Shown one piece after another: positions 13,955-50,884 of a stretch of DNA of 64,000 nt; positions within the stretch are counted from its first letter, which is position 1; every line of letters begins with the position of its first letter. Made by a program: the position numbers and the translations under genes. The notes under the pieces were generated by a model. It was not told the origin of the DNA, ran no database searches, and saw nothing but the letters and a program-made list of their open reading frames with translations. Origin of the DNA: Escherichia coli (GTDB lineage: Bacteria > Pseudomonadota > Gammaproteobacteria > Enterobacterales > Enterobacteriaceae). The stretch is from the NCBI RefSeq assembly GCF_016903815.1, contig NZ_CP069973.1. One strand, 5' to 3'.

Positions 13955-14155
13955 TTCCATTAACCGCCCCTGACGATGCTCAGGGGCAAAAATGTTATCC
14001 ACATCACAATTTCGTTTTGCAAATTGGGAATGTTTGCAATTATTTGCCACAGGTAACAAAAAACCAGTCCGCGAAGTTGATAGAATCGCATCATCTCGCA
14101 CGGTCAAATGTGCTTTTTCAAACACTCATCCGCATCACGATGTGAGGAAATTAAC

Positions 14156-15412
14156 ATGAATCTTAAGCTGCAGCTGAAAATCCTCTCTTTTCTGCAGTTC
14201 TGTCTGTGGGGAAGTTGGCTGACGACCCTCGGCTCCTATATGTTTGTTACCCTGAAGTTTGACGGTGCTTCTATTGGCGCAGTTTATAGCTCACTGGGTA
14301 TCGCAGCGGTCTTTATGCCTGCGCTGCTGGGGATTGTGGCCGACAAATGGTTAAGTGCGAAATGGGTATATGCCATTTGCCACACCATTGGCGCTATCAC
14401 GCTGTTCATGGCGGCACAGGTCACGACACCGGAAGCGATGTTCCTTGTGATATTGATTAACTCGTTTGCTTATATGCCAACGCTTGGGTTAATCAACACC
14501 ATCTCTTACTATCGCCTGCAAAATGCCGGGATGGATATCGTTACTGACTTCCCGCCAATCCGTATCTGGGGCACCATCGGCTTTATCATGGCAATGTGGG
14601 TGGTGAGCCTGTCTGGCTTCGAATTAAGCCACATGCAGCTGTATATTGGCGCAGCACTTTCCGCCATTCTGGTTCTGTTTACCCTGACTCTGCCGCATAT
14701 TCCGGTTGCTAAACAGCAAGCGAATCAGAGCTGGACAACCCTGCTGGGCCTCGATGCATTCGCGCTGTTTAAAAACAAGCGTATGGCAATCTTCTTCATC
14801 TTCTCAATGCTGCTGGGCGCGGAACTGCAGATTACCAACATGTTCGGTAACACCTTCCTGCACAGCTTCGACAAAGATCCGATGTTTGCCAGCAGCTTCA
14901 TCGTGCAGCATGCGTCAATCATCATGTCGATTTCGCAGATCTCTGAAACCCTGTTCATTCTGACCATCCCGTTCTTCTTAAGCCGCTACGGCATTAAGAA
15001 CGTAATGATGATCAGTATCGTGGCGTGGATCCTGCGTTTTGCGCTGTTTGCTTACGGTGACCCGACTCCGTTCGGCACCGTACTGCTGGTTCTGTCGATG
15101 ATTGTTTACGGCTGCGCATTCGACTTCTTCAACATCTCTGGTTCGGTGTTTGTCGAAAAAGAAGTTAGCCCGGCAATTCGCGCCAGTGCGCAGGGGATGT
15201 TCCTGATGATGACTAACGGCTTCGGCTGTATCCTCGGCGGCATCGTGAGCGGTAAAGTGGTTGAGATGTACACCCAAAACGGCATTACCGACTGGCAGAC
15301 CGTATGGCTGATTTTCGCAGGTTACTCCGTGGTTCTGGCCTTCGCATTCATGGCGATGTTCAAATATAAACACGTTCGTGTCCCGACAGGCACACAGACG
15401 GTTAGCCACTAA
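14156..15412 (+). CDS. nupG: nucleoside:H+ symporter
   Basis: Multi-TM ORF starting MNLKLQLKILSFLQF. Confidence 0.9.
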   Translation: MNLKLQLKILSFLQFCLWGSWLTTLGSYMFVTLKFDGASIGAVYSSLGIAAVFMPALLGIVADKWLSAKWVYAICHTIGAITLFMAAQVTTPEAMFLVILINSFAYMPTLGLINTISYYRLQNAGMDIVTDFPPIRIWGTIGFIMAMWVVSLSGFELSHMQLYIGAALSAILVLFTLTLPHIPVAKQQANQSWTTLLGLDAFALFKNKRMAIFFIFSMLLGAELQITNMFGNTFLHSFDKDPMFASSFIVQHASIIMSISQISETLFILTIPFFLSRYGIKNVMMISIVAWILRFALFAYGDPTPFGTVLLVLSMIVYGCAFDFFNISGSVFVEKEVSPAIRASAQGMFLMMTNGFGCILGGIVSGKVVEMYTQNGITDWQTVWLIFAGYSVVLAFAFMAMFKYKHVRVPTGTQTVSH

Positions 15413-15422
15413 TTACGCAAAG

Positions 15423-15457
15423 AAAAACGGGTCGCCAGAAGGTGACCCGTTTTTTTA
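15423..15457. terminator. bidirectional rho-independent terminator between nupG and speC
   Basis: aaaaacgggtcgccagaaggtgacccgttttttt: hairpin flanked by A-run and T-run. Confidence 0.6.
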
Positions 15458-15460
15458 TTC

Positions 15461-17596
15461 TTACTTCAACACATACCCGTACAACCGTTTCATGCCATCT
15501 GCATCGGTTTCGCTATAGACACCTTGCAGCTCCGGCGAAAATCCCGGCAACAAATTCACCCCTTCTTCCAGCGCAAGGAAATAACGTTGAACCGCCCCAC
15601 CCCAGACTTCTCCGGGTACCACGCAAAGCACGCCTGGTGGATAAGGCAACGCCCCTTCTGCCGCAATTCGCCCTTCGGCATCACGAATCCGCACCAACTC
15701 CACTTCACCGCGAATATAAGCGCTATGCGCATCCTGGGGATTCATCACCACTGACGGGAAACTCTGCTGGCGGAACATCGCTTTTTGTAGGTCTTTGACG
15801 TCGAAACTGACATACAAATCGTGCATCTCCTGACACAACTGGCGCAGGGTGTAGTCGCGATAGCGCACCGGATATTTGTTATAAACGCTCGGCAACACCT
15901 CAGCCAGCGGCGAGTCATCCTCAATATGCTGTTCAAACTGCGCCAGCATCGCCACCAGTTGTGCCAGCTTCTCGTGGCTTTCCGCCGGAGTTAATAAGAA
16001 CAGAATGGAGTTGAGATCGCACTTCTCCGGCACAATGCCGTTCTCACGCAGGTAGTGCGCCAGAATCGTCGCCGGAACGCCAAAGTCGCTATATTCGCCG
16101 GTTTCGGCATTGATACCTGGTGTAGTGAGTAACAGCTTGCACGGATCAACAAAATACTGATCCGCGGCATATCCTTCAAAGCCGTGCCACTTCGCCCCCG
16201 GCTCAAAACTGAAAAAACGACGGTCACTGGCTAACACTGATGTCGGATAATCCTGCCACAATTTGCCATCAACAACAGGCGGGATAAACGGGCGGAACAG
16301 CTTACAGCGCGCAAGAATCGCCTTCCGGGCTTCAATCCCCAACGCAACGCACTCCGCCCACAGCCGACGCCCACTCTCCCCTTCATGAATTTTGGCGTTA
16401 ACGTCCAGCGCGGCAAACAGCGGATAGAACGGGCTGGTAGAAGCATGGAGCATAAAGGCATTATTTAACCGCTTATGCGGGCAAAAACGCGCCTGCCCGC
16501 GAATATGGTTATCTTTTTTATGGATCTGCGATGTCTGCGAGAAGCCCGCCTGCTGTTTGTGCACCGACTGGGTCACAAAGATCCCCGGATCGTTTTCGTT
16601 AAGTTCTAACAGCAGCGGCGAGCTATCCGCCATCATCGGGATAAACTGTTCGTAACCGACCCACGCGGAATCAAACAGAATGTAATCACACAGATGCCCA
16701 ACGGTATCGATCACCTGACGGGCGTTATAGACAGTGCCGTCATAGGTTCCCAGCTGAATAATCGCCAGGCGAAACGGGCGCGGCAGGTCGGCTTTTTCTG
16801 GCGCAACGTCGCGAATTTGCTGGCGCAGATACTCTTCATTAAAACAGTGCGCATCAATACCGCCAATGAAACCAAACGGGTTACGTGAAGCTTCCAGATA
16901 GACCGGCGTCGCCCCCGCCTGAATCAGCGCGCCGTGATGATTCGACTTATGGTTGTTACGGTCGAAGAGCACCAGATCGCCACGCGTTAACAGCGCATTC
17001 GTCACCACTTTATTCGCTGCCGATGTGCCGTTCAGTACAAAATAGGTTTTATCGGCATGAAAGACTTTGGCTGCGAATTTCTGCGCATCCTTCGCCGATC
17101 CTTCATGAATAAGCAGATCGCCCAATTTTACGTCAGCGTTACACATATCGGCGCGAAAGATGTTCTCGCCAAAGAAATCGTAAAAATGGCGTCCGGCAGG
17201 ATGCTTTTTAAAGAACGCACCATGTTGATGTCCAGGGCAAGCAAAGGTGCTGTTGCCCATCTCAACGTACTGCGTCAGCGTGTCATAAAACGGTGGCAGC
17301 AAATTCTCTTCATACTGACAGGCTGCGGATTCCAGCTCCAGCCACTGCTGCTCGTTGCCGTTGATTACCGCCGTAACGCCCGCAGGTAATTCAACAGCAT
17401 GTTCGGAATACAAAAACACCGGTAGATGAAAACCGGTGCGCTTAAGCAACGCAAGAATGCCACTGCGACTATCCGCAGCGGTAATGACGACTGCCGCGAC
17501 GTCCGTAAAATCAGTATCTCCCAACGCCACCACGCGGCGATGAGTAGAAAGTCGGGATACCAGTTCACTACTGGCGGCAATATTCATTGATTTCAT
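15461..17596 (-). CDS. speC: constitutive ornithine decarboxylase
   Basis: Start taken at MKSMNIAASSELVSRL (711 aa), PLP-dependent decarboxylase. Confidence 0.95.
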   Translation of the reverse strand: MKSMNIAASSELVSRLSTHRRVVALGDTDFTDVAAVVITAADSRSGILALLKRTGFHLPVFLYSEHAVELPAGVTAVINGNEQQWLELESAACQYEENLLPPFYDTLTQYVEMGNSTFACPGHQHGAFFKKHPAGRHFYDFFGENIFRADMCNADVKLGDLLIHEGSAKDAQKFAAKVFHADKTYFVLNGTSAANKVVTNALLTRGDLVLFDRNNHKSNHHGALIQAGATPVYLEASRNPFGFIGGIDAHCFNEEYLRQQIRDVAPEKADLPRPFRLAIIQLGTYDGTVYNARQVIDTVGHLCDYILFDSAWVGYEQFIPMMADSSPLLLELNENDPGIFVTQSVHKQQAGFSQTSQIHKKDNHIRGQARFCPHKRLNNAFMLHASTSPFYPLFAALDVNAKIHEGESGRRLWAECVALGIEARKAILARCKLFRPFIPPVVDGKLWQDYPTSVLASDRRFFSFEPGAKWHGFEGYAADQYFVDPCKLLLTTPGINAETGEYSDFGVPATILAHYLRENGIVPEKCDLNSILFLLTPAESHEKLAQLVAMLAQFEQHIEDDSPLAEVLPSVYNKYPVRYRDYTLRQLCQEMHDLYVSFDVKDLQKAMFRQQSFPSVVMNPQDAHSAYIRGEVELVRIRDAEGRIAAEGALPYPPGVLCVVPGEVWGGAVQRYFLALEEGVNLLPGFSPELQGVYSETDADGMKRLYGYVLK

Positions 17597-18801: not shown

Positions 18802-18877
18802 GCCCGGATAGCTCAGTCGGTAGAGCAGGGGATTGAAAATCCCCGTGTCCTTGGTTCGATTCCGAGTCCGGGCACCA
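18802..18877 (+). tRNA. pheV: tRNA-Phe (GAA anticodon)
   Basis: 76-nt cloverleaf gcccggatagctcagtcggtagagcaggggattgaaaatccccgtgtccttggttcgattccgagtccgggcacca; position after yqgA. Confidence 0.95.
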
Positions 18878-35381: not shown

Positions 35382-35940
35382 AAAGGCTCCAATATACTAA
35401 TTGCTAAACTAATTAAATCGATTTAGCAATTAAAGCATAAACGCTGCTCAGGAGAGAACAATATTCATCAATAGTTACGTGGTATTTTGTTGTGAGAATA
35501 TGTCGGAAATATGGTAAGTGATGAGATAGTCTTCCCCCACCTTCACGACCGCTTTCAATTGCGCCATAGCGAATAAATTTTAACCACAAAAGTAAGAGAA
35601 AGGCCATGATTGAACAGAAAATTACCGACATCGCTCAGGCTAAAACGAACTTTTATCTTTTCAGTATCAATGCTCGTGGCAATCACGCGGGAAAGATCAA
35701 ACTTTCTCACAACCAACTGCTTAACTGGCTGGTATAACAGCCAAAATGACCGTTGCGATGAAGGCTTGCGGGACATCCCATCACTGCCCACAGGAAATAA
35801 GGGAACTCAACTATGATGTAATATTGCATCCAGCACAACATGTTAAATCTTATCAATGGCGTCAGAAAAATGATTATAACAACGCACAGCAATAGCTGAA
35901 ACCTATCAATATAGAACTATACGACTGGTACCAATAAAAA

Positions 35941-35972
35941 GTCTGGACCTACAGAACGTCCAGGCTTTTTTG
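35941..35972. terminator. bidirectional hairpin terminator
   Basis: aaaagtctggacctacagaacgtccaggcttttttg; plausibly the original terminator of the gene now interrupted by IS3. Confidence 0.45.
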
Positions 35973-36214
35973 AAAATGCATCGGTTGATCTCGATGGAAG
36001 GACACAACTGATAGATCATGTTCTTGGACTTCTTACTGAATACGGCATTGTGTTCAGTAAAAGCGCAACAGAATTACGCCCCAAATTACCGGCATTACTT
36101 GAGGATGCGGCGATGCTGTACCTGCGGATTGGTACATGCCGTCTGAACAATATGGCTCCAGAAAAATGGCTGTGAACCGCCCCGGGTTTCCTGGAGAGTG
36201 TTTTATCTGTGAAC

Positions 36215-37105
36215 TCAGGCTGCCAGATCATCGTTTCCGATGGAAGCATAATAAGCTTTTTCTGCTTCTGCCGGAGGAGTATGGCCCAGCCTTCCCAGCA
36301 ATCGTCGATTGTTATACCAGTCCACCCACGTTAGTGTGGCCAGTTCCACTTCTGCACGGTTTTTCCAGCTCTTACGGTGTATTACCTCCGCTTTGTAAAG
36401 ACCATTGATGCTCTCAGCCATCGCGTTGTCATACGAGTCGCCTGTACTCCCTGTTGATGCCAGTAATCCGGCTTCTTTTAGTCGCTCCGTATAGGCCAGT
36501 GACACATACTGAGAGCCTTTATCGCTGTGATGGATGGTGCCAGACGGACGACGGGCCCACAACGCCTGCTCCAGCGCATCCAGCACGAATGTCGTTTCCA
36601 TAGACGATGAGACCCGCCACCCCACGATGTATCCGGCAAACACATCAATGATAAACGCCACATAGACGAAGCCCTGCCATGTGCTGACGTAAGTAAAATC
36701 AGCCACCCACAGCTGGTCAGGTCGTTCTGCCACGAACTGACGGTTTACGCGGTCGCCTGCGGCAACGGCTTTCCGGCTGATGGTCGTACGGACCTTTTTA
36801 CCCCGGAGAACACCGGCAAGTCCCATAACCGCCATGAGACGTGCCACTGTACATCTGGCCACCCTGATTCCTTCCCGTAACAACTGACGCCAGACTTTAC
36901 GCACACCGTACACCTGATGATTTTCATCGTATACGCGCTGTATCTCTCTCTTCAGCCAGTCGTCGTGCTGCGCACGGGCACTGCGTTTATCCGGATGATG
37001 TCGCTGTTGCTGACAATGGTAATACGTTGACGGGGCAATATGCAGTTCGCTGCATACCGGTCCGACCCCGTACTGCTCACGCAGCTTATCCAGCAGTGGC
37101 ATCAT
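36215..37105 (-). CDS. insF: IS3 transposase OrfB (DDE integrase domain)
   Basis: 296-aa translation recognised as IS3 InsF. Confidence 0.85.
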
Positions 37106-37428
37106 TTTTTCCAGAGGCGGTCGAACTCCGCCTTCGCAAAATAAGCGGAAGCCTGGCGAAGGATATCGTTACTGCGGCGCAGTTCACGATTTTCACGTTC
37201 CAGCTCTTTCAGACGCTGACGTTCAGCGCTGGTGAGCCCACCATCACCGCCCCCGGTATCCCGCTCATGCTGGCGAACCCAGACACGCAGAGTCTCCGGC
37301 GTACAGCCAATCTTTGGAGCAATGGAACAAATTGCCGCCCACTGTGAGTCATATTCATCCTGACTTTCCAGAACCATACGAATCGCCCGCTGACGGACTT
37401 CGGGGGAAAAACGAGTATTTTTAGTCAT
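37102..37428 (-). CDS. insE: IS3 transposase OrfA (HTH)
   Basis: 108-aa translation [20 protein letters not shown]... recognised as IS3 InsE. Confidence 0.85.
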
Positions 37429-37453
37429 CCTGTTTACCTCTTTCTCAGGGAGT

Positions 37454-40400
37454 TTAGTCTCCAGGATTTCCGGGGCGGTTCAGCTGTTCATTAAAACGTT
37501 GTCCAGGCTGATCATAAAGTGCGCGTAATGTCTCCGCGGATGGCCGCGGTTGCATTTGCTGCATGCAGGGTTTCTGGTGGTAATCAAAATACTGTGGCAG
37601 ATGCTGGATCTCTGCTTTGTTTTCAATTACCCGTTGAAGGGCTCTTTGACGCAACTCTCTTGATGATTTGTCACGGATCGATTCCAATTGTAGCTGGCTG
37701 CCGCTACTAATTCGCTTACGAGCAGCATCAAAATCAAAGCGAATAGCCAATAGACTCGGCGTAGTCTCACTTAGCTGCAATTCCCCTAATTGCACTGATT
37801 CACGCTTATCTTTAATATAAACAATGATCTTATCATCAAGTTCAAAGCTGAGGTCAGCACCGGATTCCGTAGTATATGGGTAGAGTAAGCAACCACTCGG
37901 TGATTCCTGAAAGTCAGTAGAGTCGATGTTGACTATATCTCGTAGGTCTACTTCTGTATCAGATAATGCCTGCCATAACTCAATTGGGCTTGACTCACTA
38001 CTATCGAAGTCATCTTCATCCATCTCTTGATTAGGATTAGCTCGCTCAATGATGGCATCAATTACTGGCTCGAGGTTAAACAGTAGTTCAATAAAAGTAT
38101 TACGCTGATTAAGTGAGCCACGTTGTAATGAAAGTTGAGTATTAATTTTAGCCTGGGAATATTTACCAGCCTTTATACTTTCTTCGATCGATAATCCTTT
38201 TTCATACACTATTCTATTAATAGTGCGATTATCAGGATCTAAGTCTATCAATAGCCGCTCTCCTAGGCCAGTGATGTAACAACGCAATTCATGCGCAAAG
38301 CGTGGGTTAGATGACCAGTTACATTGAAAATAATAGATCCCATCATTTTGTTCTAGAAGCTTCACTTCTTGCGGCCAATCATCTGTGCCCCAGCAAACAG
38401 GAATTACCTTATCCTGTGACTCAGACGCCACAACTTGATTAATCTCAGCTTGTTCCGGTGCTCGAATTGACTGCAGCAAAGGATCGAGCGCGATAGGTAT
38501 ACCGTCAACGGTTTGTTTTGCGCGTTCTAGCTCAGCCTGCACCAGTACTGGCATATCTTCACTAAATAGCTCCTCCACCATACGATATACTGCAAAGCAA
38601 TCTCGCCCAAAAGCATCAGTACTTTCGGGATTCTCTGGCTGGTAGCGATTATCTGCAGTTAATTCATCACTGAATTCAAGCAATCCAATCAGAGTAATTA
38701 CTGTCTGCTCCCCGACTTGTACCAGCAGTTTCTCTGGGCAAAGATCTCCATGAGGTAACTGCTTTTCATGAAAAGCATGAATGGTGTTGATCAACTTTTC
38801 CGCAATTGTAAAACGTTGGGATTGTACTAACACGTTCTCAGCAATAAACTGTGACCACGGTAGGCCATCCACATACTCGCTCACTACATACAAGCCGCCT
38901 TGTCCTAATAGTCCATAGGACTGCACCTTAGGAGTTGGCAGATTTATATGCGTAAGCTTATCGATCCGTTGCTTAAAAGCGTGGATACGGCGGTTAACAC
39001 CAGGTTGTTGAGGGGTCAAAATAACACCATCCCACAATTTTACCTGCAGAGCTTTCCCACCTTGTTCACAGTGATAACTGATGCTGCCAGTCGTAGCAAT
39101 AGCAGCAAGAGCAGAGTAAACCATAGACAACTGTTCAGGAAGTGGAGGAAACTCAATTAACACACCAACGCTGTTCATCCCTTCGCGAAAGAATTTGTTT
39201 TGCTTTAATTCTTGATAAATCTGGTTAGCTTCATCAAATTCTTGGCTATGTTCCTTAGTAGCTGCATTAAACTCATTGAGCATTATGTCCGCACGTGGAA
39301 AGCGTTTACTTGGCTCAAGGTTAAGAGCTTGCTCAAACCAGCTATTTAGAATACCGCTAAAAGGATCAGTTAATGGAGCTCTCCATTCAGGCATCTGTCC
39401 AGGAGTCAGTAATGATTCACCTGCAAAACAAATACGATAAGCAATTACAGCCAACATGAATACATCTAGGCGATAGGGCTCAACTGCTTCTTCAAAAGCA
39501 TCTTCGGGCAAAATATATGGAGCACTTTGCAATGTCGGACGCAATGACTCTAGGCTATTATGTCCCTCCAGTGAGGCTGCGCCAAAGCCAGTAACGACAA
39601 TGCTCTTCTGATCCCCTGCGTACCATAGATTGTGCGGGTCAATATCACAATGACTGATACCCAAGCTATGTAATTCCGAGAATGGAGCTAATAATGCACG
39701 AACGCGATCAATACGCTCAGATTTACTCCATCCGTCAGCTTCGCTATCTAGAATCTCATCTAATCGGCTAAAACTACGGCGTAACTCATACAGCTCACGG
39801 GCATCATCAGTTATATCCTCCTCGGATAGTTCCCTTACAGCACGCAACATATAATCCTGCATAGTTGCGCTGCCATGACGAACTAGGCGACCGACTCGAG
39901 TCTCACGCAGAGCTATCTCAGCCCACAATGTTTGCATTGCGTTTGCTACACCCAAGGCATCAAAGTTCCACTGCCGTAGCAGACCTCTGTGTTGACTATT
40001 GTCTTTGTGGGTAGCCCTGAATTCGTTGTAGACCATGTGAGGGTGACTAAAGAATGGCTTATCGTTCGCAAGATAACCGCTTTCTTTTAGTGGCAAAGGC
40101 CTGACTTTTGGTCCTTCAAAGAAGGACTTAATTATAGGTAATGCCTCATCAGAATTTGGTCGAGGCTTTCCCCCTTCAAAAAGATGAAAAAAGTTAGTGT
40201 GTTGCACCAGCTTTTCGTAATTTTTTGGGTTACCTATAGTCAAGAATTCATCACGGGTATGAACATAGCGCCTCTCACTTAATGGCAAGTTTTCAGGACC
40301 AGCTGTGCCACACAGCACTACATGAGCCTCAACATGCAAAAAGTAACCCAGCTTACGAGATAACTCTTCCTGCAACAAATCTTTTAGTCGCAGTGCATGC

Positions 40401-40678
40401 TCACGCTTGATCTGATAGGGACTTTTGCCTCGTGACTTACCATTTTGCAGCCACTTCCCCCCTTCAAATGTGATGTTACCATTCCACTCTTTAAGCTCGA
40501 CTAATAGCAGACGGTCAGCAGTAATAATTAGCATATCGATTTCCATCGACCCTTGGCTATCAGTAACAACTAAGCCAGCATAGCCAAACCAACTATCTGG
40601 TAACTGCTTAACCATCATATCAACTGTTTTGGTTTCGCTGCGGTGCAGGCCAGCACCACCTACTATCTGATACTTCAC
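37454..40678 (-). CDS. 1074-aa protein with N-terminal NERD-like nuclease domain and two protein-kinase-like regions; 3' end runs into IS3
   Basis: NERD-like motif [21 protein letters not shown]; kinase catalytic-loop-like motifs [10 protein letters not shown] and [10 protein letters not shown]; last about 9 codons and stop lie inside the IS3 inverted repeat. Confidence 0.7.
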
Positions 40679-40885: not shown

Positions 40886-41042
40886 AAGATGCGAACACCA
40901 CATCTTGTGCCACTCAGCAAACAGGCTGTAGCCATACTGATAAAACTTCAGACATGGGCAGTTGAAAATGGTCTGGTCTTTACGGGAGCACATGACCCGC
41001 GTAAACCAATCAGCGAAAACACCGTAAATAAGGCCCTTAGGT
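40886..41042 (+). pseudogene. integrase gene fragment (about 157 bp copy of 19903-20060)
   Basis: Near-identical by eye to the internal segment of the integrase at 19075-20337. Confidence 0.7.
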
Positions 41043-41145: not shown

Positions 41146-41773
41146 CTATTCGTTATAGTGTTCGAACGCCTCCGCAAGGTTTTTTACTGCCGTTAACACG
41201 TCCGGTTTAGGTATGATACTGATGTAATCGCTCTTCATCGTTTTCACGAACCGTTCTCTCATTCCATTACTCTGAGGGCTACTGACTGCCGTCGTGCAGA
41301 GCTCCAGATTCAACTCTCTGGCGAACTGCCGTGTTTCATGAGTTGTATAAGCCGAACCGTTATCGGTCAGCCACTGGATGGGCCATCCCGGTCTATCGCC
41401 AAAGCGTTTTTCTATCGCTCCTGACATGACATCCTGCACCGTTGCTTTGCCATAACCTCCCGTGCTTGCGGCCCAGTCTATGGATTCAAGATCGCAACAG
41501 TCCAGTGCGAACGTGACACGCAGTTTTTCGTCATCATCACAACCGAACTCAAAGCCATCGGCACACCAGCGCGGGTCGCTTTCCTTCACCGATATTCGGG
41601 CCTTTATGTTCCCTCTGCGGTCGTGAAGGTTTGTCATGTAATAACAACAGGTTATTCTCGCTCATTATTCGATAAACGCGATTTGCATTCACGAACTGCA
41701 GTCCTTCGTTAAGACTGCCGTCTGAGAATAGCCCGGACACGACGATAGCCATCGAATCGCTGAACAGCGTCAT
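41146..41773 (-). pseudogene. IS2-like (IS3 family) transposase OrfB remnant, frameshifted
   Basis: Translation resembles IS2 InsD ([32 protein letters not shown]...AEAFEHYNE); split over two frames. Confidence 0.6.
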
Positions 41774-41879: not shown

Positions 41880-42209
41880 ATGTCAAAACCCCGATGGACC
41901 ATTGAACAGAAAAGGCAGCACGTTGCTGCCTGGCGCGCCAGTGGTCTTACACGTCAGCAATACTGTGAACTCAACGATATTCCCTTCACATCACTTCGCG
42001 AATGGCCGCAGGATGTCGCAAAAGCTGAACGCCGGGCAAATGAACCGACCGTTCTTCCCGTTCATATTGCGCCACCACTGCATGCTGATGTACCACAGCC
42101 CGTCACGAATGAGCCAGTCACGCTCTTCCTTCCCGGCGGAGTACGGATGTGCTGTCAGCCGTCACAACTTACCGATGTCTTCAGGGCGCTCAAATATGCT
42201 CAGTCCTGA
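41880..42209 (+). CDS. IS66-family accessory protein Orf1 (TnpA)
   Basis: Small HTH-like ORF preceding the IS66 Orf2-like gene. Confidence 0.55.
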   Translation: MSKPRWTIEQKRQHVAAWRASGLTRQQYCELNDIPFTSLREWPQDVAKAERRANEPTVLPVHIAPPLHADVPQPVTNEPVTLFLPGGVRMCCQPSQLTDVFRALKYAQS

Positions 42210-42588
42210 TAATGTCTTCATCGCGATTAAACCTGTTGACATGCGCCGGGGCATCGACACACTGACGCAGTATATACAGGATGAACTCCGGTCGACATGG
42301 CATGAGGGAGCCGCCTTCGTCTTTGTTAACAAAGTCCGTTCGCGTATCAAAGTTCTCCGGTGGGATAAACACGGGGTGTGGTTGTGTACCCGCCGTCTGC
42401 ACAAAGGCAGCTTCCGCTGGCCACGTGCAAATGATGCTGCCTGGCACCTAACTCCCGACGAGTTTAACTGGCTGATTGCCGGTGTTGACTGGCAGCAGGT
42501 TAAGGGACATGACCTGACGAAATGGGGCTGGCAGAATGAACCTGAACTGCGCCCTGAAAACACGCAAAATACACTGCTAACTCAGTGA
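42196..42588 (+). CDS. IS66-family Orf2 (TnpB)
   Basis: Translation MLSPDNVFIAIKPVDMRRGIDTL...RLHKGSFRWP typical of IS66 Orf2. Confidence 0.7.
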   Translation: MLSPDNVFIAIKPVDMRRGIDTLTQYIQDELRSTWHEGAAFVFVNKVRSRIKVLRWDKHGVWLCTRRLHKGSFRWPRANDAAWHLTPDEFNWLIAGVDWQQVKGHDLTKWGWQNEPELRPENTQNTLLTQ

Positions 42589-42594
42589 AAAATA

Positions 42595-43480
42595 ATGAAT
42601 ATCCGTATCTGGAGTGGTATACTCCCCTGTATGGATATCTCCGCTCTCAACACCACGAATGACATCGAAAAACTGCGTGCTATGGCACTTACCATGGTAC
42701 AAAAAGTCATGTCGGAGAATGCCGAAAAAGAGCGGGAATTACTGGAGAAAAGCCGGCGCATCCAGCTTCTGGAAGAAATGCTGAAACTGGTTCGTCAACA
42801 GCGCTTCGGTAAAAAATGTGAAACGCTGGCTGGTATGCAACGCTCCCTGTTCGAAGAGGATGTTGATGTCGATATCGCCGCGCTTACCGCACATCTGGAT
42901 AAACTGCTCCCGCAATCCCCTGAAGAAGACGAAAAAGCGTCCCGTTCACGCCCGATACGCAAACCCTTACCGGCTCATCTTCCACGGGTGGAAAAAATTA
43001 TCCAGCCGGACACTGACCATTGCCCTGAATGTGACGAGCCGCTGCACTATATCCGTGATGCGGTGAGTGAAAAGCTGGAGTATATTCCCGTTCACTTCGT
43101 GGTGAACCGTTATGTCCGTCCGCAATACAGTTGTTCCTGTTGCCAGAAGGTGTTCAGCGGTGAAATGCCGGCACATATCCTCCCGAAAAGTGCCGTTGAG
43201 CCATCAGTCATCGCACAGGTGATCATCAATAAATACGGTGACCACCTGCCTCTGTATCGCCAGCAACAGGTCTTTGCCCGTTCAGTGTCGGGCTGCCCGT
43301 CAGTTCGATGGCTGACATGGTTGGCGCGGCGGGTGCCGCATTATCTCCCCTGGCGGCGTTACTCCATCGCGAGTTGATAAACCGTCCGGTGGTGCATGCA
43401 GATGAGACTACCCTGAAGATCCTGAACACTAAGAAAGGCGGTAAATCCTGCTCCGGTTATCTGTGGGCAACCAGCCTTCC
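42595..43480 (+). pseudogene. IS66-family transposase (TnpC), frameshifted and 3'-truncated
   Basis: Zn-ribbon CPECDEPL ... CSCCQKV, then HADETTLKILN in another frame; homology ends near 43480. Confidence 0.65.
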
Positions 43481-44274
43481 GCCTCGTCCGGATCCGCTGT
43501 TTCCAGTGTCATCAGGAGCCGGCTGCATGCTTCCCCTGCCGTTTTACCCAGCGTGGCCCGCTGCGAAAGACGGATGCGGTTTCCGGCACCCAGCCCACTG
43601 CGGTTATCGATATGGACCTTAACCGGATCGGGTTCGGTGATAAGTGCGCGGGTATCCGGTGCCAGCAGACTCACCAGAGCCCGGATGCCTTCAGCATTGC
43701 GGGTGGGTAATCGCATGGCACCCAGTAAGGCCAGGAAACGGGAAACCGGCGTTGCCACCTGTTCAGCGGTGCCGGGTATACCGAGTCCGACCAGTCCCAG
43801 CAGACACTGCGATGTGGCATCGCGCCCCCCCTCCTCGAAAGTGGCCGGATACGCATATTTTCGCCAGATCCGGTAGTACTGGGTGGTGATGCGGTGGCTG
43901 AAAATATCCAGAAATGAGGTGAGCGCCTCATGTCCTTCACGGCGCTGCGCAATATCATCCAGCCAGGACGTCGGCAGAGGTGAGTCCACCCCATACATTC
44001 CGAGAAATGTCGTGCGGATCGTTGGGGGTAATGTCGGACGGTCTTCGTCGATCTCCACCGCTTTCAGGGTGCTGACCGGGAATCCCATCCCGGGCCAGGG
44101 CCTGAATCGCACCGGGTCATCGCCCGGATGGCTGGTCGTGCCCAGTTTTGGCCCGTCCGGATTTTCCAGCTCCAGCAGCTGGCAGAAACGATAAAAACTG
44201 GCCCGCCAGATATCGTTGTTAAGGGCCAGGGCCTGCGTCAGCCCGGTACGTGCTGGCTGTGATTCTCTTTTCAT
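43429..44274 (-). CDS. tssG: type VI secretion baseplate protein TssG, C-terminally truncated
   Basis: N-terminal FYRFCQLLELE...DPVRFRPWPGMGFPVS pattern of TssG; abuts IS66 remnant. Confidence 0.6.
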   Translation of the reverse strand: MKRESQPARTGLTQALALNNDIWRASFYRFCQLLELENPDGPKLGTTSHPGDDPVRFRPWPGMGFPVSTLKAVEIDEDRPTLPPTIRTTFLGMYGVDSPLPTSWLDDIAQRREGHEALTSFLDIFSHRITTQYYRIWRKYAYPATFEEGGRDATSQCLLGLVGLGIPGTAEQVATPVSRFLALLGAMRLPTRNAEGIRALVSLLAPDTRALITEPDPVKVHIDNRSGLGAGNRIRLSQRATLGKTAGEACSRLLMTLETADPDEAEGWLPTDNRSRIYRLS

Positions 44275-45929
44275 CTCAGTCGTTTCCCTGTGGGTTGCAG
44301 TACCAGTGTGAGCTGGTTGAAAAGGTGAACATCAGCATAGAGCGCAAAGAAACGGTGCAGCATCTCCCCGAAGAGATTCACATCGCCCTCGCCGGCAAAA
44401 TTATCCATATTCAGCGTGACCTCAATGTCCACGCCACGGAGCATAAAGCCCTTTTCAAAACGGCGGATCAGGGTGTGCTTCACAGCAACGATGGCTTCAA
44501 GCCGGCGGCGGTTCATTTCATCGTCGGTCCAGTCATAGAGCGCCAGCGTCCCCCGCAGCACCTCCGGATTGTCCATCATGCTGAGAAAGTTTGATCCGAG
44601 GTGACTCATCACCCGCCAGTGAAACCGGTCATTTGCCGGGGGATACAGTGGCATCGTCGGTGCGGTCAGGTTCAGGACTCTGACGGGGACTTTGCCGGTT
44701 TTGACCACCCTGTCCAGGAGCGTACTTTCCAGCGCCCTGCGCGGAAGCTGCCCGTTGGTCGCGGTGATTCGCATCGAGAGGGACTCCGGTTTATCGGACA
44801 ACTGCTCCAGCTCGAACGAACGCCCCCCGAGAACTAACCATGTGTCATACAGGCCGGAGGGTCCCCGTTTCACACGGGTGTGGTAATAACGTTCAGGAGC
44901 ATCGTGGCGCATCATACCGCCCCGGTGCCGGAAGCTGGTGAACGGGACATAAGGGTGTCTGCCGTTCTTCACCGAGCCGTGAATGTTATCGACGCTGTAA
45001 ATTTCGGTGTGACCATCCTGAAGACGCAGCGGCCTGAGCAGGTACTCGTTATCCAGCGGGTTAAGGATCAGCGGGTCGGCTTCCAGGGTAAAGAGATTGA
45101 TAACCGGCGCACAGTGCAGGCGGAAGTTTTCTGTCTCAAAAGGCAAACCGGATGACCAGGCTTCACTGAGCACAATGTCGATTTCAAACCAGGTACTGGC
45201 CGCAGTGAGCCCAATGGTGTCGAGGCCGCGCAGTTCAACAAACATAAACTTCGGACGGAAGCTGAAATACTCCAGCAGCAACTGGTAACCACTGAAGGCT
45301 GTATCAGCTTTCTTCCACAGGCAGTCATTGTCGTCAAAGCCCATGGGTCTGCACCAGCCGTCAAACTGACGACGTCCGGTATATGTCCCGGCATGACGCG
45401 CATACATGGCATGTACACGCCGGGTCATTGCCAGATGTAGCGCAGCACTTACCGGCGCCTCTGCGTTAAGAAAAATGGCGACTTTGTCGATCCCGGCTTT
45501 ACTCCAGTCCACTTTTTCAGGGCATTCGAAGCGCAGACGGATAGCAGAGCGGCCATCGGATTCAGTATGGAGACGGGCATCTGCAAGGTGCAGCGGTTGT
45601 AGCAACACATCGCGGGTCGCCCGGTACTGGCAGGCGGTTTTATGCGGCCCGACAGGACGGGACAGAACGGAAAAGCCTTCAGCCAGTATTTCGGCCTGAC
45701 GCAGACTACGCCAGTCAGGCGAGAACTCAACGATGGCCAGCGACGGGATAGTCCGCATATAGTGCGGCCACAGCAGACTCACCAGACCTTCGGTGAGCTC
45801 CGGCAGGTCATCATCCAGCTTTTCACGCAAACGTCCCATCAGGAAGGCAAAGCCTTCAAACAGACGTTCCACACTGGGATCGCAGGCACCAGGCTTATCC
45901 AGATTCAGCATTGCTGACGTAATCCACAT
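44271..45929 (-). CDS. tssF: type VI secretion baseplate protein TssF (N-terminus possibly frameshifted)
   Basis: VERLFEGFAFLMGRLREKLDDDLPELTEGLVSLLWPHYMRTIPSLAIVEF pattern of TssF; upstream 73-aa ORF is in a different frame. Confidence 0.6.
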   Translation of the reverse strand: MWITSAMLNLDKPGACDPSVERLFEGFAFLMGRLREKLDDDLPELTEGLVSLLWPHYMRTIPSLAIVEFSPDWRSLRQAEILAEGFSVLSRPVGPHKTACQYRATRDVLLQPLHLADARLHTESDGRSAIRLRFECPEKVDWSKAGIDKVAIFLNAEAPVSAALHLAMTRRVHAMYARHAGTYTGRRQFDGWCRPMGFDDNDCLWKKADTAFSGYQLLLEYFSFRPKFMFVELRGLDTIGLTAASTWFEIDIVLSEAWSSGLPFETENFRLHCAPVINLFTLEADPLILNPLDNEYLLRPLRLQDGHTEIYSVDNIHGSVKNGRHPYVPFTSFRHRGGMMRHDAPERYYHTRVKRGPSGLYDTWLVLGGRSFELEQLSDKPESLSMRITATNGQLPRRALESTLLDRVVKTGKVPVRVLNLTAPTMPLYPPANDRFHWRVMSHLGSNFLSMMDNPEVLRGTLALYDWTDDEMNRRRLEAIVAVKHTLIRRFEKGFMLRGVDIEVTLNMDNFAGEGDVNLFGEMLHRFFALYADVHLFNQLTLVLQPTGKRLR

Positions 45930-48635: not shown

Positions 48636-50179
48636 GCTGATGACTCCTGAAAGTTAATGACGTTTTAAGTGCTGTAAACGAATTAATGCTTTCGCTCATA
48701 ATCAGATCTAAAACGGTAATAACTTACAGACGGTATTTATCAGGCATGCTGTAACAGAATGGATACGTCGGTTATTAACGACACACAGCGTTGTGCTGAA
48801 GGGTATGAGTTATCTGATGGCATTGTCTATAGAGATGAGATAAACGAGGTGCGAAGAAAATACAGATTCAATACAACACAGTGAAATACAGAAAAATACG
48901 AACTGTAATCCCGCTGCCAGGCGGTTAGGAAACATATTACAACTATAAGCTCATGGTTTGTAAATTTGCTCTCAGTGAGTCTGAAAAAACGTTTATAAGG
49001 TCACCACAATAAACTCACACGCGCTTATTCAATCTGTTCTCCAGGATATGAACGTTAACGACACACGATAGCATAAGACAACATACAATGGATGAATAAT
49101 TTTCACCCAGTACCTTAAACAATACAACCGGCAACAAATATAATCAGAAATTCACTCTGTTAATTCTGTTGTTTATCCTGCGCTGTTAAACATGACGGAA
49201 CCATGGATACCTTATCAAAGAGTAAGCATTCAGTTAATCAGTAATGACAGAGAAATTGATGTTCACCAGAATAGTTAAAACACTTCAGATAAACAATCAT
49301 TGTTAAGCAAATACGGTTCATAATGGATAAATTAGAATCAATTACTGTTTTACTGAAGATGAGAATAGATGAATATCAACAATAGCGTAGTAGAGAATAA
49401 CTTACCTGAACATCATATGAGTTACAGTAGTTATGATTGAGGGATGGAGTGAATACGATAACAAGAGTAATACTAATGGAATGTGTAAAGATTGAGAGTG
49501 AGTGAAGACAGGAAGTAAATAACAATAGAGATTGTATGAAAAAGGGAGTGAATAAAGAATATATAAAGAATAAATATAATTATAGTAATAAACCTAAATT
49601 AAAATCATCCTTGTTTGATGAGTAAAAATAATTCTAGAAAATGAATCTGTCTGAAAACTCTTTCTCAGAGATTAACCGATCAGATGCTCAACGGACTCAA
49701 TAAATTGGCTGAGTCAGGTTACCTCATCCACACTCTATTTGTTTCTAGAAGGATCTACCATTTTGTTCATCTACCGGAACACATCAATTTAGTAACTCGA
49801 TAATATCGGTTATGTAGATATTTATCGTTGCTACCAATGCCTAGATTATTATTCTCCAAGTATTTTCTTGACTTACAGGCTAATTTTGAAACAAATGTCA
49901 TGCTATTTTAGGAAAAGAACCTATGCAAAAGTCTGCTATGAGCGAGGAGCAGATATTCATCTGGTATACAAAGACAATATCGCTTAAGTCATCAGTGCTG
50001 CCACTTTAACCACTAGCTCTGCTCTTTTTGGACTTTTGAGCTAAAAATTAAATCTGACAGTGTGATAAGGTGCAAGTTTCTGAAAATACGCCAGTTGTTT
50101 TACACTCAAAAGCCCCCATTACTATCTGATGTTAATGGCGCAGCAGTTATCTTTCAGATTATTAAGGGGAAACAAGAGT

Positions 50180-50884
50180 ATGGCAAGATGTACAGCTCCT
50201 GTACGTGGACATAGCTCAGCAGCAGCTGCTGCTGCCTGTCCCGCATGTCGTAATCGCAGTGGTTATCGCCGCAGTAGCTACAGTTATGATAGTTACCCTT
50301 CTTACTCATCAGGCTCTAGCGGTGGCGGAAGTTATGGAGGCAGTAGCGGTGGTTCCAGCAGCAGCGCGAAGCCACGTTGGTCAAAATCAGGGTCTTCCGT
50401 TTCTTACACAACAGCCCAAGTACAATCACTCACACCAATTCGACAAGCGGTAGAGAAACTTGCCATTGAGCAACCTGATCTGCGTGATGTCTTTCTTTGC
50501 CATGCTTGGGATGACCGACAAGGTATTGCCAAAGAGTTACACGATTTGCTCGAAGCGGCAGGTGTCAAAGTATGGTTCAGCGAAAAGGATCTTGCCCTTG
50601 GTGTTCCGATGATGCGTGCCATTGATAAAGGATTAGCAAACTCTCGAATCGGCTTGGTTTTAGTGACACCTGCATTGTTAAACCGTCTTCCTAAAGAAGG
50701 CGTTGCTGATAAAGAACTTTCCGCCTTACTGGCAGGCAACCAACTCGTTCCCATCGTGCATAACACGACGTATGAAGCTCTCCGTAATGTCAGTCCTTTG
50801 CTTGCATCCCGAAGCGGCCTCGACACGGGAGAAGATACATTGGCAGTTGTTGCAACAAAAATTGCAGAGCTGATCACTGTTTAG
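50180..50884 (+). CDS. TIR-domain protein with Ser/Gly/Tyr-rich low-complexity N-terminus
   Basis: RBS aagggga then ATG; TIR-like motifs DVFLCHAWDD, VWFSEKDLALG, SRIGLVLVTPALL. Confidence 0.7.
   Translation: MARCTAPVRGHSSAAAAAACPACRNRSGYRRSSYSYDSYPSYSSGSSGGGSYGGSSGGSSSSAKPRWSKSGSSVSYTTAQVQSLTPIRQAVEKLAIEQPDLRDVFLCHAWDDRQGIAKELHDLLEAAGVKVWFSEKDLALGVPMMRAIDKGLANSRIGLVLVTPALLNRLPKEGVADKELSALLAGNQLVPIVHNTTYEALRNVSPLLASRSGLDTGEDTLAVVATKIAELITV

Follow-up and report, generated by a model that had tools for sequence, protein, structure and literature searches.

The window analysed here is a stretch of 64,000 nucleotides from Escherichia coli (contig NZ_CP069973.1, assembly GCF_016903815.1) in which an open reading frame at 37454-40678, on the minus strand, encodes a protein of 1074 amino acids (RefSeq WP_251301667.1). 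Its GTG start codon agrees with the RefSeq start of the intact allele of the gene, mkoA, in strain 222 (NZ_CP020516.1). The frame is composite: 37483-40678 (minus strand; 3196 bp) is the 5' part of mkoA, that is codons 1-1065 and the first base of codon 1066, cut at the junction with an IS1203 element, while 37454-37482 (minus strand) encodes the tail LNRPGNPGD and its stop codon out of the terminal inverted repeat of the element, the Leu codon still having a native first base at 37483. Native MkoA sequence thus stops at ...RFNEQ, codon 1065, and is followed by 9 IS-derived residues, at the point where the intact allele continues with QLMAFQQLVEFGPVGVLQGPPGTGKT. The GC content of the mkoA remnant is 0.44 (GC3 0.378), against 0.484 for the window.

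The adjoining element (36173-37482, minus strand) is a 1310-bp IS1203/IS629 of the IS3 family, with zero mismatches to two strain 222 copies annotated as "IS3-like element IS1203 family transposase"; it carries orfA (37102-37428), orfB (36215-37105), a –1 frameshift pseudoknot (37031-37147; Rfam ALIL, 121.5 bits) and the terminal inverted repeats TGAACCGCC...GGCGGTTCA. On its far side lies a terminator-like hairpin that includes runs of A and of T (35937-35972; RNA fold –16.5 kcal/mol, z –3.9); a pattern scan for terminators gave no call at 35941-35972, apparently since the folded loop has 9 nt and the scan allows at most 8. About 208 bp upstream of the mkoA start there is a fragment of a tyrosine recombinase (integrase) at 40886-41041 on the plus strand, located through a 100% alignment with the annotated, identical sequence of strain 222 in RefSeq, and adjoined by the remnant of a DDE transposase at 41146-41637. 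Within E. coli, the system is carried by the pheV genomic island. In these descriptive points the initial annotation was accurate, since it had recognized a NERD-like segment, two kinase-like regions, a start next to an integrase remnant, a frame running into an IS3 inverted repeat and, by eye, a relatively AT-rich gene.

The N-terminal NERD domain (PD-(D/E)xK-type nuclease-related; residues 14-122, 40313-40639, minus strand) is matched by Pfam PF08378 with an E value of 6.7e-14, and its D48...E61-x-K63 motif is invariant in 97/97 homologues, as are D55 and R56; the match and the conserved D...(D/E)xK motif identify the domain, for which a nuclease role is predicted. It is followed by a first kinase-fold domain (about residues 195-480; 39239-40096, minus strand), with a Pfam Pkinase match at residues 317-418 (E 1.1e-4), CaMK1, MAPKAPK2 and PknE among the PDB sequence matches of the region, and NERD-kinase models of PglW and MAD6 that cover about residues 10-487 of the protein. 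Modelled by AF2 (pLDDT 86), residues 1-1065 retrieve the kinase domains of PknB and CaMKII in Foldseek (E about 1e-9, TM 0.6-0.7). The canonical residue set of an active kinase (beta3 Lys, HRD Asp, catalytic-loop Asn, DFG Asp) is incomplete in kinase 1: H343-C-D345 and N350 are conserved in the homologues, the DFG Asp position is occupied by Gly364 (Gly in 88 of the 97 homologues), and column counts over the same 97 sequences gave an invariant Arg235 and no conserved Lys in the N-lobe. Kinase 1 may be a pseudokinase or a non-canonical enzyme.

The second kinase-fold domain (residues 498-745; 38444-39187, minus strand) is Bud32/RIO-like, being matched by PD-T4-6 kinase models at about 1e-12 and by the Bud32 model TIGR03724 at 2.8e-7, with a weak Pfam match (E 0.06). 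Because the Foldseek search with all 1065 residues gave kinases only, without query ranges that would separate the domains, kinase 2 was also modelled alone (pLDDT 93.4, pTM 0.89), and the top PDB matches of this model were all protein kinases, with E values of about 1e-7. It has K547 and H643-G-D645; the majority of the family shows N650 and D668-Y-G, whereas the clade of the window carries K650 and E668-F-S. The remaining residues, 757-1065 (37484-38410, minus strand), form a beta-rich linker which lies within the MkoA profile match, is conserved in MkoA homologues, is mainly modelled as strands by AF2 (pLDDT about 80-90) and directly precedes the helicase in intact MkoA; no named family was found for it, Pfam giving just a chance-level SH3_1 match (E 0.17). 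As a side observation, the frame is uninterrupted and the D...ExK residues of NERD are kept together with both HxD motifs, which counts against inactivity of the product.

Among defence models, the best match of the protein is the PADLOC MkoA profile PDLC03921 (E 2.2e-188, 626.9 bits), with residues 2-1065 aligned to positions 2-1030 of 1607, or two-thirds of the model. The search for intact homologues recovered the true C-terminus in strain 222, whose mkoA has its nucleotides 1-3196 100% identical to the retained 3196 bp and encodes 1652 amino acids with NERD, two kinase domains and an Upf1-like SF1 helicase; next to it, overlapping the mkoA stop codon, is mkoB (515 amino acids). Both strain 222 proteins are full-length Mokosh type I matches, MkoA scoring 1305 bits over profile positions 2-1598 of 1607 and MkoB matching PDLC03923 with an E value of 1.1e-61. 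The helicase occupies about residues 1084-1640 of the intact allele, its PDB matches are Upf1/NAM7, SEN1, DNA2 and IGHMBP2 (best 3e-28, Upf1/NAM7), and its Walker A motif GPPGTGKT begins 19 residues beyond the break. In the window, tblastn with MkoA residues 1066-1652 found no COG1112/Upf1-like helicase with Walker A, which is missing from the reading frame as well, and tblastn found no MkoB homologue in the 64 kb. The Ser/Thr-kinase-like domain by which MkoA is recognized, N-terminal to the helicase, is represented here by two kinase-fold domains. Since the MkoA profile is matched but the helicase is absent, the window copy is a truncated allele comprising the front two-thirds of a type I Mokosh MkoA.

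Two other assignments were weighed against these data. The N-terminal NERD-kinase module is also matched by the models of PglW (E 2.3e-23, residues 12-419) and MAD6 (E 4e-39, residues 10-487), as would be expected of a gene from a BREX/Pgl or a MADS system; however, these scores of 81.6 and 134.6 bits are to be set against curated NCBIfam cut-offs of 990 and 460, the matches span NERD and kinase 1 only whereas MkoA gives 627 bits across the whole protein, and the annotation of the identical locus holds no BREX or MADS partner genes. Membership in either system is rejected by the curated cut-offs and the gene context, and its likelihood is negligible. The initial annotation, for its part, took the gene for a nearly complete single-gene defence protein of undescribed architecture (NERD and tandem kinases) whose final 25-60 residues the IS had replaced. 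Its domain calls were correct and the gene is alone within the window, but the same sequence runs 587 codons further, into the helicase, in 70 complete genomes, where mkoB follows; the best defence-model match is MkoA, over two-thirds of the model only; and the DNA beyond the IS borders a different IS1203 copy, 16 kb distant, and does not represent the end of mkoA. This reading is refuted. The architecture is not a new one, as the PADLOC match at E 2e-188 places it in the N-terminal two-thirds of MkoA and makes the gene a broken copy of the type I Mokosh already described; the suspected link to phage defence was well founded.

The extent of the loss is given by the alignment with strain 222, to which the window is identical except for a gap of 15.9 kb and a single mismatch in 64 kb (window 1-36209 and 37483-64000 taken together). 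The junction lies at 37482/37483, where strain 222 positions 846723-862626 (15,904 bp) are missing, and the IS of the window is identical to the strain 222 copy at 862627-863936, which flanks the scr genes. Lost with the deletion are the 3' 1763 bp of mkoA (587 amino acids, with the whole helicase) and the entire mkoB, together with about 12 kb that includes an IS3-family element with a group II intron, two other IS3-family elements, of which one is a further IS1203 copy, remnants of IS66, and MFS, RidA, isomerase and HTH genes. The gene is indeed alone in the window, as first noted, but only since mkoB and these 12 kb were deleted together with its 3' end. Similarly, the hairpin that had been read as a bidirectional terminator of the gene, and from which the loss of 25-60 residues had been judged, is real, but in strain 222 it runs on directly from the IS1203 copy at 862627-863936. 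It is part of the original flank of that copy, unrelated to mkoA and brought in by the deletion.

The four bases CAGC are present on both sides of the IS. A simple insertion with CAGC as target-site duplication is rejected, since the DNA across the element is what originally bordered an IS1203 copy that strain 222 has at a distance of 16 kb. A reading frame continuing past the IS is likewise rejected, the intact gene going on with a different sequence. A rearrangement at the IS1203 copy 16 kb downstream fused the end of the element to mkoA at codon 1066, either by a transposase-mediated adjacent deletion or by insertion of IS1203 and subsequent recombination with the copy downstream, and CAGC on both sides fits adjacent deletion and insertion plus IS-IS recombination alike. 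The event removed, within the 15,904 bp, the entire Upf1-like SF1 helicase and all of mkoB, leaving NERD, an atypical kinase, a Bud32-like kinase, the beta-rich linker and 9 IS-encoded residues behind an unchanged upstream region. As in the deletions associated with IS629/IS1203 in E. coli, a 1310-bp IS1203 retains one original flank, its other end lies on new DNA and the 15.9 kb in between are gone; the present case differs in that its mechanism is indistinguishable from sequence. The identical junction was found in 0/5426 complete E. coli genomes, and in strain 2779 an IS1203 is joined 3 bp from the window junction, with nested IS fragments. A weaker and unlikely conjecture is that AATGAACAGC in mkoA is hit by IS1203 repeatedly, owing to its resemblance to the IS terminus TGAAC.

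Taken together, the reading frame is a truncated mkoA of a "long-form" type I Mokosh system, left by an IS1203-linked deletion of the helicase and mkoB with loss of the defence, a reading to which we assign a probability of roughly 0.93. The gene is present in 71/5426 complete E. coli genomes, 70 of which have at least 80% of mkoAB, and 97/113 homologues are proteins of about 1650 amino acids with NERD, Pkinase, AAA_11 and AAA_12. The deletion is recent, because the 3196 bp that remain show no difference from the intact allele (100% identity). Mokosh defence has most likely been lost in the lineage of the window, and the remnant would be a young, pseudogene-like relic. As a separate observation, this very allele of 1074 amino acids was detected in at least 40 sequencing runs (Logan assemblies); such an occurrence in dozens of runs counts against inactivity and indicates that the allele is tolerated and stably inherited.

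The remnant might, on the other hand, still work alone, as a toxic or abortive-infection nuclease/kinase module, a stand-alone defence or a modulator of other defences, and be retained for that. The frame and its upstream region are intact, D48, E61 and K63 of NERD and K547 and H643-G-D645 of kinase 2 are present, NERD-kinase modules are also found in PglW and MAD6, and, because the MkoB of the long-form subtype is without PLD or any other Pfam domain, the NERD domain, which is kept and is the one nuclease domain recognizable in the subtype, may be the nuclease of the system; the spread of the truncated allele over the sequencing runs could be taken in the same sense. The recent date of the event makes this persistence uninformative on selection, however, and 97/113 homologues have the module and the helicase in a single protein, the short ones among the 113 being labelled partial or lying at contig ends. 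Moreover, kinase 1 is without the DFG Asp family-wide, kinase 2 of the window clade carries N650K and D668E, and the helicase ATP site is needed according to published Mokosh mutants (Millman 2022). This last requirement is extrapolated to the long-form subtype, because the text of Millman 2022 does not specify the one among the three Mokosh systems that carried the mutations. Independent activity of the remnant is very unlikely, and loss of function upon deletion of the helicase and mkoB is the preferred reading.

The remnant may accordingly be seen as a case of IS activity inactivating a defence system within a mobile island, a kind of decay that is common, and it is of little importance in itself. 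It carries a caution, in that a long, clean reading frame ending in an IS can mask a large loss (here 587 amino acids and a partner gene) and that an architecture deduced from a truncated copy can seem novel although the full-length family is catalogued. The features of long-form type I Mokosh collected here, namely the invariant NERD motif, the non-canonical kinase 1 and an MkoB lacking PLD, could guide functional work; in the literature searched, mechanistic work on Mokosh was limited to Millman 2022, Cury et al. and the HIDEN-SEQ preprint.

Among known systems, type I Mokosh is marked as verified for SG199 (E. coli SEC470) and SG202 (Millman 2022), the system of E. coli CFE331 is active (HIDEN-SEQ preprint) and NERD is listed for Mokosh type I (PMC10952713). 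The SEC470 MkoA, described as a "Kinase-Helicase" of 1652 amino acids (Millman 2022), is a distant homologue of the window protein and not the same protein, its N-terminus sharing 28% identity over 346 amino acids (E 7e-42), and SEC470 MkoB matches that of strain 222 with an E value of 5e-15. With this long form (SG199, PDLC03921) the locus shares the order NERD, kinase, kinase, an alignment to the MkoA model throughout the part that is retained, an intact allele of 1652 amino acids and an MkoB with no recognizable PLD (that of strain 222 had zero matches in the Pfam scan and lacks the HxKxxxxD motif), while the window copy differs in being without residues 1066-1652 and mkoB and in having 9 IS-encoded residues. 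The short form (ETEC H10407, 1215 amino acids, PDLC03920), whose MkoB is labelled HTH-PLD, has a kinase followed by a COG1112/Upf1-like helicase; its model matches the intact allele with an E value of 1.4e-120, chiefly over the helicase part, and the window protein only weakly (E 2.9e-16), over one kinase region (residues 274-484). PglW of BREX type 2/Pgl and MAD6 of MADS have in common with MkoA an N-terminal NERD and Ser/Thr-kinase module, and differ from it in their C-terminal parts and partner genes.

The ORF at 37454-40678 (minus strand, 1074 aa, GTG start) is an mkoA gene truncated by the insertion sequence IS1203, what is left of a type I Mokosh locus that has decayed within the pheV island, and represents an already known gene. 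Among the defence models, its product matches by far best MkoA of Mokosh (PDLC03921, E 2.2e-188), with the match limited to model positions 2-1030 of 1607. Among 5426 complete E. coli genomes, 69 carry the first 3196 bp of mkoA with ≥99% identity and another 2 with 95-99%, in each case on the chromosome and within a far longer gene annotated as 'AAA domain-containing protein'. In strain 222 (NZ_CP020516.1), where the locus is intact, mkoA is 4959 bp long and encodes a protein of 1652 aa (WP_000877066.1) that covers the full MkoA model (1305 bits, positions 2-1598 of 1607), followed by a gene, overlapping the mkoA stop codon, whose 515-aa product (WP_001294844.1) matches MkoB (E 1.1e-61). The MkoA portion absent from the window is similar to the helicases Upf1/NAM7, SEN1, DNA2 and IGHMBP2 (lowest E 3e-28), and in the intact protein a Walker A motif, GPPGTGKT, starts 19 residues past the break point. 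In a large protein collection, 97 of the 113 homologues are about 1650 aa long with NERD, Pkinase, AAA_11 and AAA_12 domains; shorter entries carry the label 'partial' or lie on small contigs. The 90% identity cluster has 1288 members, with many fragments among those listed; a further group of truncated mkoA alleles seems to be represented by the 686-691-aa proteins of Salmonella enterica serovar Kentucky, which bear the names 'nuclease' or 'nuclease, partial' (97% identity to the window protein for the 686-aa cluster representative).

The truncating element (36173-37482, 1310 bp) is an IS1203/IS629 copy of the IS3 family, identical to RefSeq copies of the 'IS3-like element IS1203 family' and carrying the ALIL frameshift pseudoknot. 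Over its full length the window has a single mismatch with strain 222, window 1-36209 corresponding to 900108-863900 and 37483-64000 to 846722-820205 of that genome; the only other difference is the absence from the window of 15,904 bp (strain 222 846723-862626). Since the retained IS1203 copy lies in strain 222 at 862627-863936, adjoining the scrK-scrY sucrose genes and oriented as mkoA, the deletion fused the left end of the IS to mkoA codon 1066. It removed 587 codons of mkoA, the entire mkoB and four cargo genes (an MFS transporter, RidA, a sugar-phosphate isomerase and an HTH regulator). Also lost were IS66 remnants and three IS3-family elements: one lies just downstream of mkoB (strain 222 850195-853707), shares about 90% identity with IS1203 and is split by a group II intron that carries an ltrA reverse transcriptase, and another is a second IS1203 copy. 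A tblastn search over the 64-kb window found nothing of the helicase part or MkoB. The initial annotation, which took the gene as naturally solitary with only a small C-terminal loss, is corrected on both points. The hairpin at 35937-35972 from which that loss was judged is genuine and terminator-like, but it belongs to the original IS flank and is therefore uninformative on the native end of mkoA.

The deletion could have arisen by transposase-mediated adjacent deletion or, by a second route, IS1203 would have inserted into mkoA and then recombined with the downstream copy. CAGC is present on each side of the window IS; in strain 222 these 4 bp are the target duplication that flanks this copy, and they also form the final four bases of the retained mkoA. 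In strain 2779 (NZ_CP103521.1) the junction between IS1203 and mkoA lies 3 bp upstream of that in the window (sites at 37478-37492 in the window and 15185-15200 in the strain 2779 locus) and gives a product of 1073 aa annotated in RefSeq as 'NERD domain-containing protein kinase family protein'. Because of this 3-bp offset, and of the nested and inverted IS fragments behind IS1203 in strain 2779, the two events are distinct, and two separate joinings suggest a preferred target. The target site AATGAACAGC includes TGAAC, with which the IS terminus begins; the pattern may reflect an IS1203 hot spot or IR-like targeting.

The NERD domain, the two kinase-like regions and the IS clipping previously reported for the ORF are all borne out, as is its AT-richness (GC 0.44, GC3 0.378 vs 0.484 for the window); the IS terminal inverted repeat supplies the stop codon and the nine C-terminal residues (LNRPGNPGD). 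In the ORF protein, Pfam places NERD at residues 14-122 (E 6.7e-14) and a protein kinase at residues 317-418 (E 1.1e-4), with a weak second kinase match at 595-657 (E 0.06). Independent support for the second region comes from the NCBIfam Bud32 domain model (residues ~563-673, 2.8e-7) and, at about 1e-12, from the PADLOC PD-T4-6 kinase models. When residues 498-745 were modelled with AlphaFold2 (pLDDT 93.4, pTM 0.89), the top PDB matches were all protein kinases; modelling all 1065 native residues (pLDDT 86) likewise gave matches to the PknB, CaMKII and AMPK kinase domains. In the alignment of the 97 full-length homologues (kinase domains at window 38444-40096), the NERD residues D48...E61-x-K63 are invariant and kept in the window copy. 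Kinase domain 1 has invariant H343 and D345, an invariant Arg235 but no conserved Lys in its N-lobe, and Gly in place of the DFG Asp in 88 of the 97. Kinase domain 2, canonical in most of the family, keeps in the window copy a Bud32-like fold with K547 and H643-G-D645; the E. coli/Shewanella/Vibrio clade, window included, shows N650K, D665G and D668E, D-Y-G becoming E-F-S.

With neither helicase nor MkoB, the remnant is most likely non-functional as Mokosh and a young relic; its retained mkoA part is 100% identical to the intact allele. The exact 1074-aa product (WP_251301667.1) recurs in assemblies from dozens of sequencing runs, so that the truncated allele is tolerated, but given the zero divergence this recurrence is uninformative on selection. 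MkoB of strain 222 (locus positions 13959-15506) lacks an HxKxxxxD (HKD) motif and any Pfam match up to E 10; on these sequence grounds, the NERD of MkoA may take the place of the PLD nuclease in the long-form subtype, that with a 1652-aa MkoA. If NERD is the nuclease, there is a small chance that the remnant keeps some activity.

IS elements have caused heavy decay of the pheV (tRNA-Phe, 18802-18874) island. In order, the window contains core genes (gshB...speC, yqgA), tRNA-Phe, an integrase, eptA-like and other cargo, the scrKYABR sucrose regulon, the Mokosh remnant, type VI secretion remnants, a TIR gene and a CP4-like block that includes the CbtA/YeeU toxin-antitoxin pair; kpsF lies at the distal end. 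The baseplate genes tssF and tssG (41880-45929) are truncated remnants, cut by IS66-family tnpA and tnpB and a frameshifted transposase, with a DDE-integrase fragment adjoining. The orphan TIR protein (50180-50884, plus strand) is ThsB-like (PADLOC PDLC00424, E 2.7e-128); no ThsA partner was found, with PADLOC matches in none of the five neighbouring ORFs scanned. Within 48636-50884, an AT-rich stretch of ~1.5 kb (GC ~0.33 around 49-50 kb) precedes the gene and lacks ORFs of 50 aa or longer on both strands. Its initial ~800-950 bp recur in ~1500 E. coli genomes, where they bear no annotated feature. Rfam naRNA4 (CssrE, a nucleoid-associated ncRNA/REP-like element) matches at 6906-6976 on the minus strand with 60.9 bits, just over the gathering score of 59.5.

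The NERD-kinase module is shared with PglW (BREX/Pgl) and MAD6 (MADS), for both of which the scores are far under the curated cut-offs. In Mokosh, defined by Millman et al. (2022), type I MkoA combines a Ser/Thr-kinase domain with a COG1112/Upf1-like RNA helicase and has MkoB, encoded by a second gene, as partner. The two verified type I systems in their supplementary table are SG202 from ETEC H10407, with a MkoA of 1215 aa and an HTH-PLD MkoB, and SG199 from E. coli SEC470, with a 'Kinase-Helicase' MkoA of 1652 aa and a 478-aa MkoB labelled only 'HTH' (Millman et al., 2022). The N-terminus of SEC470 MkoA is 28% identical to the window protein over 346 aa spanning NERD and kinase 1 (E 7e-42), and its MkoB is 23% identical to that of strain 222 over 394 aa (E 5e-15). 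NERD (PF08378) was already given as a type I Mokosh domain in a 2023 review (PMC10952713), and a type I Mokosh of a uropathogenic E. coli restricts T-even phages, except those with Alt or glucosyltransferase (2025 preprint). The suspected link to defence thus holds, and the architecture not recognised at first corresponds to the N-terminal two-thirds of MkoA, a catalogued and experimentally supported family.
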